From Bacillus benzoevorans (GTDB lineage: Bacteria; Bacillota; Bacilli; Bacillales; Cytobacillaceae), in NCBI RefSeq assembly GCF_014207535.1, contig NZ_JACHGK010000003.1, positions 232,635-256,634 of the forward strand: a DNA stretch of 24,000 nucleotides, written 5' to 3'. The notes beneath the pieces are model-generated. The model was not told the DNA's origin. It ran no database searches and saw only the letters and a program-made list of their open reading frames with translations. Shown here one piece after another: positions 14,365-19,863 of this stretch. The translations under genes were made by a program, and so were the position numbers. The first letter of the stretch is position 1; the number at the start of each line of letters is the position of its first letter.

Positions 14365-14478
14365 TATAGGTCCCTCCTCAAAAAAATATTGGAATGATGG
14401 ACATCCCGAGGAGGGGAAGGTTACTGACAACTTCAAAGTTGCATTCGGACTACCAACCGAATCGTGTTTTTTCATTCC
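14365..14478 (-). promoter_or_regulatory. yjdF-motif (azaaromatic-responsive) riboswitch-like leader
   Basis: A structured 5' leader directly upstream of a yjdF gene.
- A 7-bp P1 (GGAAUGA at 14478..14472 with UCAUUCC at 14397..14391) encloses two hairpins.
- The hairpins are AUUCGG/CCGAAU and CAACU/AGUUG.
- CCCUCCUC (14415..14408) is perfectly complementary to the SD GAGGAGGG (14379..14372).
- Class assignment rests on gene context and remembered motif architecture. It has not been verified with a covariance model. Confidence 0.6.
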
Positions 14479-14580
14479 GTTTCCATTGTATAATTTTCCC
14501 AAAACTTTGAAAACCCTTTTGGTGAGTTTATTCCACAAATATGTACAGCGGTATTAAATCAAATATAATGGCTATTTAGC

Positions 14581-15061: not shown

Positions 15062-15471
15062 GAGTTTATCTAAACTTTGAAAAGGAGTCAAGAGAAGTGA
15101 TTGCATTTTATGAGCAAGTGTTTAATGCCAAATGTACGGATTTATTTACATTTGCAGATTTACCGCCAAACCCGGAATTTCCTGTAGCAAACGAGATAAA
15201 AGACTTAATCATGAATGCTAGTTTAATGATCGAAAATAATAAAGTCATGTTCTCTGATGTTCCTCCAAATATGGGACTAACCTTAAATATGGGAAACAAT
15301 ATCACGCTTGTCATTGATACACAAGATGAAGCAAAATTAACACAGCAATTCAATGATTTAGCTAAAGAAGGGAAAGTCATCATGCCATTAGATAAAACAT
15401 TCTGGTCTGAAAAATATGGATACGTTATTGATAAGTACGGAATTGGCTGGCAATTTAATTTATCTAAATAG
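15052..15471 (+). CDS. VOC (glyoxalase/bleomycin-resistance fold) family protein, PhnB-like
   Basis: 139 aa, beginning MALGVYLNFEKESREVIAFYEQVFNAK and ending MPLDKTFWSEKYGYVIDKYGIGWQFN. These are typical of the PhnB/3-demethylubiquinone methyltransferase-like VOC subfamily. Confidence 0.8.
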   Translation: MALGVYLNFEKESREVIAFYEQVFNAKCTDLFTFADLPPNPEFPVANEIKDLIMNASLMIENNKVMFSDVPPNMGLTLNMGNNITLVIDTQDEAKLTQQFNDLAKEGKVIMPLDKTFWSEKYGYVIDKYGIGWQFNLSK

Positions 15472-17573: not shown

Positions 17574-18158
17574 TTACACCCTTAACGATCCGCGGAAACC
17601 TCTGGCAGCATAGTAGGATTCTGCCCCATTGTGGTACACGAAGACGTGCCCGTAGCGATAATCGCAGAAAAGGGCACCACCGACGTCTCTAATATCTGAG
17701 GGTGTTTGCACCCAACTCGACGTTTTCATATCGAAATTTTCAAGCTTTTGCAACGTTCGATATTGTTCTTCTGTTAATAGTTCAATACCCATGGCAGCTG
17801 CCATATCAACAGCATTATTTTCTGGTTTATTTTTTTTCCTCGATTCCAGTGCTTCACGGTCGTAACAAACACTTCTGCGACCTTTAGGGCTTTCCGTCGA
17901 ACAATCATAAAAAATGTATTCGTCCCCACCTTTATCATATCCAACCACATCCGGTTCGCCACCAGTACTCTCCATTTCATTGAGTGACCACAGTTTTTCA
18001 ATATTTTCTTCCAGCTTTGTCTGAACTTTAACCCATTCAAGACCTTTATGGCGGTTCATATTTTTCTCGAAGCGGGCTTTCAATAATCCGAGTAATTCCT
18101 CACGTTGTTCTAATGACAACTCTTTTATATTGTTGATATTTGCCATGTTCGTTTCCAC
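17574..18158 (-). CDS. DUF4256 domain-containing protein
   Basis: 194 aa with the family-typical KARFEKNMNRHKGLEW...WSLNEMESTGGEPDVVGYD...FYDCSTESPKGRRSVCYDREALESRKK...GIELLTEEQYR...SSWVQTP...GGALFCDYRYGHVFVYHNGAESYYAARGFRGSLRV. Confidence 0.75.
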   Translation of the reverse strand: METNMANINNIKELSLEQREELLGLLKARFEKNMNRHKGLEWVKVQTKLEENIEKLWSLNEMESTGGEPDVVGYDKGGDEYIFYDCSTESPKGRRSVCYDREALESRKKNKPENNAVDMAAAMGIELLTEEQYRTLQKLENFDMKTSSWVQTPSDIRDVGGALFCDYRYGHVFVYHNGAESYYAARGFRGSLRV

Positions 18159-19001: not shown

Positions 19002-19123
19002 CCATTCAATGATTTAGCAAAGAAGGGAAAGTCGTCATGCCATTAGATAAAACATTTTGGTCAGAAAAATATGGATACGTTATTGATAAGTGCATTGGCT
19101 GGCAATTTAATTTATCAAAATAA
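19002..19123 (+). pseudogene. Remnant of a second PhnB-like VOC gene (3' end only)
   Basis: About 120 nt, by-eye roughly 90 percent identical to 15346-15471 (FNDLAKEGKV.MPLDKTFWSEKYGYVIDK..GWQFNLSK). It carries a 1-nt deletion (gctaaag to gcaaag) and a 3-nt deletion. Similarity continues about 20 nt past the stop. Confidence 0.7.
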
Positions 19124-19161
19124 GCATGCAGCAAACCGTTTAATTTTTTTCAAAATATTAC

Positions 19162-19190
19162 TTGAATTTTAGCTAACTGAATGATATTAT
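19162..19190 (+). promoter_or_regulatory. Sigma-A promoter of the S-box leader
   Basis: TTGAAT (19162-19167), 17 nt, TATTAT (19185-19190). Confidence 0.5.
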
Positions 19191-19226
19191 CAGTAACAAT
19201 ACTTAATTAAAATTAAATAGCGATAA

Positions 19227-19392
19227 CTTCTTATCCAGAGTGGTAGAGGGACAGGCCCTGTGAAACCCGGCAACCATCGAGCAATAGAATGCTTGAACGG
19301 TGCTAATTCCTGCAAAGGTGTTAACCTTTGAAAGATGAGAGGAAAGTATATCTTATACGAACCTCTCTTTATTATCAAAGAGAGGTTTTTTA
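19227..19392 (+). promoter_or_regulatory. SAM-I (S-box) riboswitch with intrinsic terminator
   Basis: The core reads CTTATCCAGAGTGGTAGAGGGACAGGCCCTGTGAAACCCGGCAACC...GGTGCTAATTCCTGCAAAGG...GAAAGATGAGAGG, matching the S-box consensus. P1 pairs 19227-19235 with 19334-19342. The terminator is AACCTCTCTTT/AAAGAGAGGTT (19360-19387) plus T6. An antiterminator can form between GAGAGG (19337-19342) and CCTCTC (19362-19367). Confidence 0.9.
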
Positions 19393-19429
19393 ATGGAAAG
19401 AGGCTATCGCTCAGAAGGAGCGGAATCAA

Positions 19430-19807
19430 ATGGAAAGAGCAGTATTTGGAGCAAGCGGATTTTTTAGTCAAAAGGCGTTTATTACCGGTTATCGCGGCAT
19501 TGAACATGTTCGATTAGGTCACCAAAAAGGAACAAATCTAGATATAGTAGAAATATGGTTTAATCCCTGGAAAGTATCTTATCGTGAATTATTAGATTTG
19601 TTTTTTGACTTACATGATCCCACTTCTATCGAAGGTCAGCCATTTAACAATCAATCTTTCATTTTCTTTTCAGATAAACATCAATATGCATTAGCTAAGC
19701 AAAAGAAAAACGAGCTAAAACACATTTATAAAGATAAAATTATTACAAAAATTACTCCGGCAAATGAATCGATTCAAGGGTTGAAAGAGATAAAATTAAT
19801 TTCTTAA
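19430..19807 (+). CDS. MsrA-like protein, degenerate (no cysteine; catalytic GCFWC replaced by SGFFS)
   Basis: 125 aa that aligns by eye to the MsrA core: AVFGASGFFSQKAF / ATFAGGCFWCMVKPF, GIEHVRLGHQKG / GIEKVVSGYTGG, EIWFNPWKVSYRELLDLFFDLHDPT / QITFHPDVFPYEKLLELFWQQIDPT. It lacks the NPTYEEVCSGxTGHAE segment, the QYRS motif and the C-terminal third. GAAGGAG RBS 9 nt upstream. Confidence 0.7.
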   Translation: MERAVFGASGFFSQKAFITGYRGIEHVRLGHQKGTNLDIVEIWFNPWKVSYRELLDLFFDLHDPTSIEGQPFNNQSFIFFSDKHQYALAKQKKNELKHIYKDKIITKITPANESIQGLKEIKLIS

Positions 19808-19809
19808 AC

Positions 19810-19846
19810 AAAAAAATGGCGTGCTAACTGTTTCCAGTTACACGCC
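19810..19846 (-). terminator. Rho-independent terminator after tag (its hairpin also closes the convergent msrA-like gene)
   Basis: A 12-bp stem with one bulge, GGCGTGCTAACTG (19818-19830) with CAGTTACACGCC (19835-19846), and a TTTC loop. The A7 upstream gives a U-tail on the minus strand. Confidence 0.7.
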
Positions 19847-19863
19847 GTCTAAAACCATTTGGT

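Follow-up and report, generated by a model that had tools for sequence, protein, structure and literature searches.

MsrA, or methionine sulfoxide reductase A, is a textbook thiol enzyme, and the set of genes controlled by S-adenosylmethionine (SAM) through the S-box, or SAM-I riboswitch, is regarded as well mapped. The locus described here bears on both. It occupies positions 19139-19807 of a 24,000-nucleotide (nt) stretch of the Bacillus benzoevorans genome (contig NZ_JACHGK010000003.1), hereafter the window, whose numbering is used throughout. It consists of a promoter, an S-box leader and the gene for a short MsrA-fold protein devoid of cysteine, which we call mini-MsrA.

The closest relatives of the protein are the canonical MsrAs, such as those of E. 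coli and M. tuberculosis (PDB 1FF3 and 1NWA), whose alpha/beta core is homologous to mini-MsrA. Mini-MsrA is under riboswitch control, whereas the canonical copies of the same genome are not. It also belongs to an isolated clade: in a profile search of 1.84 billion representatives, one full-length member of the mini-MsrA family reached 223 bits and a few fragments came next, whereas no full-length outsider scored above 67 bits. On the regulatory side, the S-box regulon of Bacillales, reportedly laid out by Grundy and Henkin in 1998 and by Rodionov et al. in 2004, is said to comprise metIC, metE, metK, metNPQ and the mtn genes. Its standard RF00162 aptamer and terminator/antiterminator platform are found here as well. 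In contrast to the genes of that regulon, mini-MsrA appears to be non-catalytic, judging from its sequence, and has no known role in methionine or SAM supply; its leader carries an additional box past the terminator, and the whole unit behaves as a mobile cassette.

A third group to be compared is that of the sulfur-depleted proteins made at sulfur starvation, namely cyanobacterial phycocyanin isoforms, yeast Pdc6 and the sulfate-starvation proteins of E. coli; Mazel and Marliere 1989 and Baudouin-Cornu 2001 are said to be the sources for such sulfur-sparing proteins. Depletion in sulfur, and expression from a switch opened by scarcity of a sulfur metabolite, would be common to them and to mini-MsrA. 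However, those proteins are isoforms that keep their activity, whereas in mini-MsrA the depletion takes the catalytic residue itself. Finally, a precedent for methionine-responsive control of an MsrA-family gene is found in Shewanella, where msrA is a member of the MetJ methionine regulon (PMC4239095). The Shewanella gene encodes a canonical, Cys-containing enzyme governed by a protein repressor, whereas mini-MsrA is Cys-free and governed by a riboswitch. Salvage of free methionine sulfoxide explains the link in Shewanella, but fails here. A survey of riboswitch regulons noted that various uncharacterised genes under Bacillales SAM riboswitches are probably linked to cysteine or methionine metabolism (PMC3766115). 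In a full-text literature search, we found no description of a Cys-less MsrA clade, of an MsrA pseudoenzyme, or of an S-box upstream of an msrA-like gene.

Mini-MsrA, a true MsrA homologue, is without the catalytic Cys and the recycling Cys region, and of the three residues that bind the sulfoxide oxygen two are lost. The clade is kept under selection and is always linked to a SAM sensor, and it seems to pass from genus to genus as well as to plasmids; cells would therefore seem to gain from an MsrA fold unable to reduce sulfoxides, and to do so specifically at low methionine or SAM. The features of the locus are as follows.

19139-19807, plus strand: the cassette as conserved, about 0.67 kb with its promoter, its S-box leader and the mini-MsrA gene, 75-87% identical by blastn to 35 Bacillaceae loci.
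19162-19190, plus strand: sigma-A-type promoter found by promoter scan, TTGAAT, 17 nt, TATTAT, with an upstream TG (extended -10).
19218-19232, plus strand: 5' box TAGCGATAACTTCTT, made of the P1 5' flank and P1 5' strand, partner of the post-terminator box 19398-19411.
19228-19341, plus strand: SAM-I (S-box) aptamer, RF00162, full length (model 1-108), 88.8 bits, E 3e-20.
19337-19367, plus strand: antiterminator helix of the P1 3' strand with the terminator 5' arm, -12.5 kcal/mol in the ViennaRNA fold of 19326-19372.
19360-19391, plus strand: intrinsic terminator of the expression platform, a 12-bp hairpin of -15.6 kcal/mol followed by U6, kept in the leader alignment.
19398-19411, plus strand: post-terminator box AAGAGGCTATCGCT, complementary to 19218-19232, beginning 2 nt past a non-conserved ATG at 19393-19395.
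19408-19422, plus strand: small hairpin CGCUC/GAGCG over the Shine-Dalgarno (SD) sequence AAGGAG (19415-19420), -7.5 kcal/mol, with a median of -8.2 in 35 copies.
19430-19807, plus strand: gene for the 125-residue Cys-free MsrA-fold protein, supported by PF01625, a structure model, Foldseek and 105 homologous clusters.
19816-19848, no strand assigned: hairpin between the convergent mini-MsrA and tag genes, -18.8 kcal/mol, with a T-run on the minus-strand side only.

The protein of the window (125 residues, 14.5 kDa) contains no Cys and no internal Met, and its gene is preceded by the SD sequence AAGGAG. It matched PF01625 with 54.8 bits (cut-off 23.7), over profile positions 45-132 of 153 only, and scored 48.6 bits against TIGR00401, the NCBIfam MsrA equivalog, which is under the cut-off of 108.1. 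The best PDB sequence matches were the MsrAs 4GWB and 1NWA. An AlphaFold2 model built from 32 family sequences had a predicted local distance difference test score of 85.3 and a predicted template-modelling score of 0.80. Compared with the PDB by Foldseek, it gave 37 matches at E<=1e-3, all of them MsrA (best TMq 0.72-0.73, with 4LWL at 0.72); one of these, 7c13, is not described as MsrA there and was named so by sequence search.

Alignment with canonical MsrAs, those of the same genome among them, located the losses. The GCFWC motif reads SGFFS in the window protein and SEFFS in the family consensus, the second Cys being Ser13 and Trp53 of MsrA being replaced by Phe. A 15-residue deletion takes out the NPTY...TG loop, which carries Tyr82 of MsrA; GxQYRS is shortened to NNQS, with Tyr134 aligned to Asn74; and the Glu94-equivalent is D, E, K or N across the family. 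These three residues, Tyr82, Glu94 and Tyr134 in E. coli and N. meningitidis numbering, are the sulfoxide-binding ones. About 50 C-terminal residues are absent, and with them the recycling Cys region and the YHQ motif. What is kept includes the Phe of GCFW, the methyl pocket in a Phe-Phe form (Trp to Phe), SY, the Q...A...K helix, and the helix-loop LFFDLHDPT, which is identical in some canonical MsrAs of other phyla. The invariant residues number 25, none of them Cys, and many lie in former active-site loops (F11 F12 S13, D60-T65, N74-S76). No conserved Cys was present in the 32 aligned proteins or in the 35 genomic copies, and the position of the lost Cys is occupied mostly by E or G, also by D and R.

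The preliminary description of this DNA had read the gene as an MsrA-core homologue without any Cys, with SGFFS in place of GCFWC, without the NPTY segment and the GTQYRS motif, and about 50 residues short, standing 38 nt behind an S-box with terminator and antiterminator. Profile search, alignment, covariance model and folding agree with it on all these points. Its further statement that canonical sulfenic-acid chemistry is barred was likewise borne out by the absence of the catalytic Cys from all orthologues; such chemistry would be impossible for a Cys-free protein. Source databases mostly label the family “peptide-methionine (S)-S-oxide reductase”, a name that is almost certainly wrong in its catalytic meaning. 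Apart from mini-MsrA, the window's genome encodes GCFWC-containing MsrAs in an msrA-msrB operon and in an msrAB fusion.

The mini-MsrA architecture exists with Cys too, because four metagenome proteins of 127-134 residues (P0113, P0147, P0199 and P0250) are MsrA-like, keep the catalytic Cys and lack the NPTY loop, P0113 having a shortened QYRS loop as well; all four represent clusters of one or two members, found on short contigs or single reads. Other short Cys-less MsrA-like proteins (P0124, P0138, P0179 and P0228), being single-member clusters from short metagenome contigs, were set aside as uninformative.

Among 5.8 billion proteins searched, the family was represented by 105 clusters in Bacillaceae, at 55-84% identity. 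Members have mostly 110-139 residues, with a few fragments and longer gene calls, and the named ones come from Peribacillus, Neobacillus, Niallia, Halalkalibacter, Alkalihalobacillus, Anaerobacillus, Metabacillus and others. For comparison at the DNA level, we used the 35 Bacillaceae loci, which are copies from species-representative genomes. The frame was intact in 34/34 full-length loci, the 35th ending at a contig edge, and the start codon and SD were conserved. The ratio of nonsynonymous to synonymous substitution rates (dN/dS, pairwise Nei-Gojobori) had a median of 0.26 over 578 pairs, and the mean p-distance was 0.137 at codon position 2, 0.207 at position 1 and 0.335 at position 3. In the same genome pairs, mini-MsrA was 71-80% identical at the amino acid level, as compared to 67-71% for canonical MsrA. 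From these substitution patterns the protein is evidently under purifying selection. Among the options left by the preliminary description, that of a maintained pseudoenzyme is the one upheld by 35 loci that lack the catalytic Cys and are linked to a riboswitch, with intact frames and a low dN/dS.

The composition of the family is also unusual. Internal Met and Cys amounted to 0.24% and 0.33% of residues in 101 members, versus 2.55% and 0.79% in long open reading frames (ORFs) of the window's genome, so that Met plus Cys is 0.57% against 3.34%, an approximately 6-fold depletion. No sulfur beyond the initiator Met was found in 53 of the 101 members; among random 124-residue segments of the proteome the proportion was 2.9%. 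This sulfur-sparing composition would be explained if the protein were made in quantity during methionine/SAM starvation, and fits an abundant protein at low SAM or methionine, an induction that we infer from the S-box only.

The S-box itself is of the standard type. Its score of 88.8 bits is to be compared to the RF00162 gathering score of 44.4 bits (cmscan). RF00162 was present about 90 nt 5' of the gene, at the same distance, in all 35 loci, with 84.7-98.2 bits, so that every one of these relatives stands behind an S-box. Almost every locus could be aligned at the promoter -35 (CTTGA), and conservation of the -10 region was good. In the predicted folds, GAGAGG (19337-42) pairs with CCUCUC (19362-67) to form the antiterminator, and this helix and the terminator are mutually exclusive, as expected of an S-box expression platform. 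The terminator hairpin itself spans 19360-19387 and its U-run extends to 19391, the last U being 38 nt from the start codon. A simple terminator scan did not flag this hairpin, because two Ts of the tail were counted into the stem. By its sequence and predicted folds, this S-box would be expected to bind SAM and to terminate transcription in a SAM-dependent manner. Only five S-boxes were above threshold in the window's genome. Judging by the translations as we read them, the genes behind three of the four others are metI/metC-like, homoserine-dehydrogenase-like and metNPQ-like; behind the fourth comes a 129-residue ORF without a name, followed by an ABC transporter.

In one Bacillaceae metagenome-assembled genome (MAG; locus L015, 2096-2357 and 2588-2827), promoter, S-box and terminator occur twice in tandem, with about 135 nt of unrelated sequence between the tandem leaders and the post-terminator box and gene. 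Either the leader has been duplicated or the assembly is at fault.

Past the terminator, the leader contains an element not shared by three other S-box leaders of this genome, those of metIC, hom and metNPQ. The post-terminator box has the consensus (A)AGA(A/G)G(C)TTATCGCT, the reverse complement of TAGCGATAA(A)CTTCTT, which makes up the P1 5' flank and 5' strand. Its TATCGCT core was invariant in 34/35 copies, and the single change was compensated. The long-range duplex between 19218-19232 and 19398-19411 was predicted in each of the 35 copies analysed; the energies had a median of -15.8 kcal/mol and a z of -4.8 versus shuffles, and the duplex is included in the minimum free energy fold of the full leader. 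One clean compensatory change, G>A / C>T, was seen in the duplex (locus L035), and an additional A on one strand accompanies an additional T on the other. The purine-rich likeness of the P1 3' strand and the post-terminator box would follow from a capture of the P1 5' strand by the box. The 5-bp hairpin over the SD is mutually exclusive with the long-range helix, as both use the post-terminator box, and it may have a regulatory role. The leader offers a testable added layer on a classical riboswitch, in the form of a post-terminator element that would capture the P1 5' strand.

The box begins next to an ATG that had attracted attention before. The 10-mer ATGGAAAGAG occurs at 19393 and again at 19430, and its first copy starts a 24-codon out-of-frame ORF; these observations of the preliminary description were correct. 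Its suggestion that the first copy reflects a leader ORF or a past indel was not sustained: the upstream ATG is missing from 9 of 36 copies (the window and the 35 loci) and falls in frames 0, 1 and 2 in the remaining ones, and therefore no leader peptide is conserved. The conservation beside this ATG is at the RNA level, in the box complementary to the P1 5' flank and 5' strand.

A similar element was noticed about 60 nt downstream of another S-box of this genome, G000:C1:620649-620752 (plus strand, 61.7 bits), where it is complementary to that S-box's own P1 5' flank and 5' strand (-13.7 kcal/mol versus -7.2 +/- 1.7 for shuffles) and lies directly before the SD of a 129-residue ORF. Anti-P1 locks may occur among S-boxes more generally.

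We then considered how the unit is distributed. The gene was found in 19 of 269 genomes of the family as defined by GTDB and in 6 of its 25 genera; within the window's own genus it was present in 9/12 genomes. The edges of the blastn homology are sharp. In most loci it begins at 19139-19156, about 15-20 nt 5' of the -35, a few loci starting as late as 19206; in about half of the loci its end is at the stop codon or a few nt past it, and in the others 40-170 nt sooner. In Peribacillus asahii, the cassette is carried by two plasmids, at 85% identity, near replication genes. The proportion of synonymous differences (pS) was 0.10-0.48 for mini-MsrA and 0.71-0.89, which is saturated, for canonical msrA in the same genome pairs, and it was only 0.10-0.21 between some different genera and families. 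The G+C content at third codon positions (GC3) was 0.16-0.23 whatever the host. Divergence of the non-coding promoter region (0.305) was close to that of third positions (0.335). In a maximum-likelihood tree, a Neobacillus copy was sister to a Fictibacillaceae copy, with support 96/85. Horizontal transfer of the cassette between soil and alkaliphilic bacilli would account for these data most economically.

Taken together, we regard it as fairly probable that the cassette is a self-contained unit, with a strong sigma-A promoter, encoding a non-redox MsrA-fold protein, made at low SAM, binding a methionine-type ligand and spread horizontally. When SAM falls, the antiterminator would form and the gene would be transcribed. 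In the read-through, SAM-free transcripts, the freed P1 5' strand would pair with the post-terminator box, and this long-range pairing would lock the leader in the ON fold and keep the box from masking the SD. The protein would then be made in quantity during methionine/SAM starvation and would act without redox chemistry. Its former active site, in which the methyl pocket (Phe-Phe) and the loops HDPT and NQS are retained, probably binds a methionine-type ligand, candidates being Met, Met-sulfoxide or a related thioether or sulfonium compound, free or in peptides. The cassette would have spread horizontally among soil and alkaliphilic bacilli. Small and easily expressed, mini-MsrA makes a test case of a redox enzyme turning into a pseudoenzyme or gaining a new function.

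Several observations weigh against this proposal or weaken parts of it. The binding of a ligand is suggested solely by which residues are retained. The positions of the lost Cys and of the Glu94-equivalent are variable; neither looks newly catalytic, yet the variability would also weaken any specific model of the pocket. For the long-range helix, the support lies in invariance, in a single clean compensatory change and in some covariation by wobble and indels. The closest pairs have dN/dS values of 0.4-0.5, which indicates that constraint is moderate. The tree follows taxonomy in part, with visible groups of Niallia and of alkaliphiles. Lastly, part of the low pS may be compositional, because the extreme A+T bias at third positions lowers the level at which pS saturates; this bias explains part of the low pS, not the lowest values.

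A wider formulation, to which we give tentative credence, is that of a mobile SAM-starvation module in which an anti-P1 lock unmasks the SD and the protein has taken up a new function. It could be a binder or chaperone for Met, a thioether or a sulfonium compound, a non-thiol enzyme, or a responder to SAM depletion, caused for instance by SAM-degrading enzymes of phages.

The alternative that stands up best is that the remodelled pocket performs a new, non-thiol catalysis on a sulfur metabolite of methionine salvage, the protein being an enzyme and not a binder. Invariant polar residues are indeed found in or near the former active site (S13, K48, Y51, D60, H62, D63, N74, Q75 and S76), conservation is as tight as in canonical MsrA, and the companions in the S-box regulon are all metabolic or transport genes. 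However, the residues at the former Cys and Glu94-equivalent positions are variable and do not look like those of a new catalytic centre, and no conserved partner gene or pathway context was found, which makes a new enzyme rather unlikely in our view.

A second alternative concerns the spread rather than the function. It could be that the gene was inherited vertically from an old ancestor, the low pS resulting from third-position A+T bias or nucleotide constraint and the patchy distribution from repeated loss. The low GC3 does lower the saturation value of pS, the tree groups some genera, and the gene is present in most genomes of the window's own genus. Against this, pS values as low as 0.10-0.21 occur between genera and families, the non-coding promoter region shows equally little divergence, almost all loci have neighbourhoods unrelated to one another, plasmids carry the unit, and the tree joins copies of different families as sisters. 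We consider vertical inheritance unlikely, and keep to horizontal spread.

Two further explanations are highly improbable. In the first, mini-MsrA would still be a methionine sulfoxide reductase, using an external low-molecular-weight thiol such as bacillithiol and serving as a sulfur-sparing starvation isozyme. A sulfur-free composition and S-box control are what such an isozyme would be expected to have, and the Phe-Phe pocket and the HDPT Asp are kept; but both tyrosines that hold the sulfoxide oxygen are lost, the acid residue is not invariant, and the genome already has two GCFWC-containing systems in its msrA-msrB operon and msrAB fusion. Besides, Cys-to-Ser mutants of MsrA are inactive, and we know of no thiol-independent MsrA. 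In the second, the cassette would function mainly as RNA, be it a SAM-binding decoy, a trans-acting S-box small RNA or a selfish element, and the ORF would be incidental. The leader is more conserved than the coding sequence (p-distance of the aptamer 0.059), it contains an extra conserved helix, and the unit is carried by plasmids, all of which would suit such a role. Nevertheless, the codon-position pattern, dN/dS and invariant amino acid motifs reveal selection on the protein, and homology runs through the coding region, down to the stop codon in about half of the loci.

That the gene is a decaying pseudogene still attached to its riboswitch, the other option of the preliminary description and one suggested by the lost catalytic residues and shortened protein, has next to no probability, being refuted by 34/34 open full-length frames across about 0.3 substitutions per neutral site, the dN/dS of 0.26, variation in the order of codon positions 3>1>2, the 25 invariant residues, the conserved start codon and SD, and the absence of the catalytic Cys in all orthologues.

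The surroundings of the cassette differ from locus to locus. In the window, the neighbouring genes encode a GNAT of generic type, a DUF4256 protein and Tag. Apart from the gene itself, no ORF cluster was common to more than 3 of the 36 regions (window and 35 loci), and where neighbours were shared, this was mostly between closely related genomes. As neighbours are not conserved, we reject a functional link to any neighbouring gene, the divergent GNAT gene included. Nor did the loci compared show terminal inverted repeats, a transposase or an integrase at the cassette edges or in the neighbourhoods. Carriage by phages was represented by distant matches only (28-39% identity), the two annotated ones being canonical msrA, and membership in a defence system was rejected, as PADLOC gave no match.

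On both P. asahii plasmids (L058 and L059, NZ_CP085721.1 and NZ_CP085716.1) a DUF4256 gene is situated about 5 kb from the cassette, and in the window one lies at 17574-18158 on the minus strand, 1.3 kb away. The proximity of DUF4256 to the window and plasmid cassettes may be the remnant of a larger shared block. The hairpin 19816-19848 is outside the conserved cassette, because the downstream sequences differ among loci. In some loci (e.g. L013, L017, L021, L026, L028 and L035), a loosely conserved TAAAACTTCACATTAGGAC-like segment, absent from the window, follows 0-60 nt past the stop codon, and the ancestor of the cassette may have reached slightly beyond the present 3' end. On the other side, a direct repeat of 73 nt with 96% identity is found at 15364-15436 and 19019-19091; the cassette abuts a rearrangement scar, because the right-hand copy of this repeat ends just before the cassette 5' edge (19139-19147). 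One MAG has the cassette twice, on different contigs (L014 and L016), corresponding either to two paralogous insertions or to a strain mixture. Finally, the window contains a second riboswitch, a full-length azaaromatic (yjdF) riboswitch RF01764, at 14381-14483 on the minus strand (95.1 bits).

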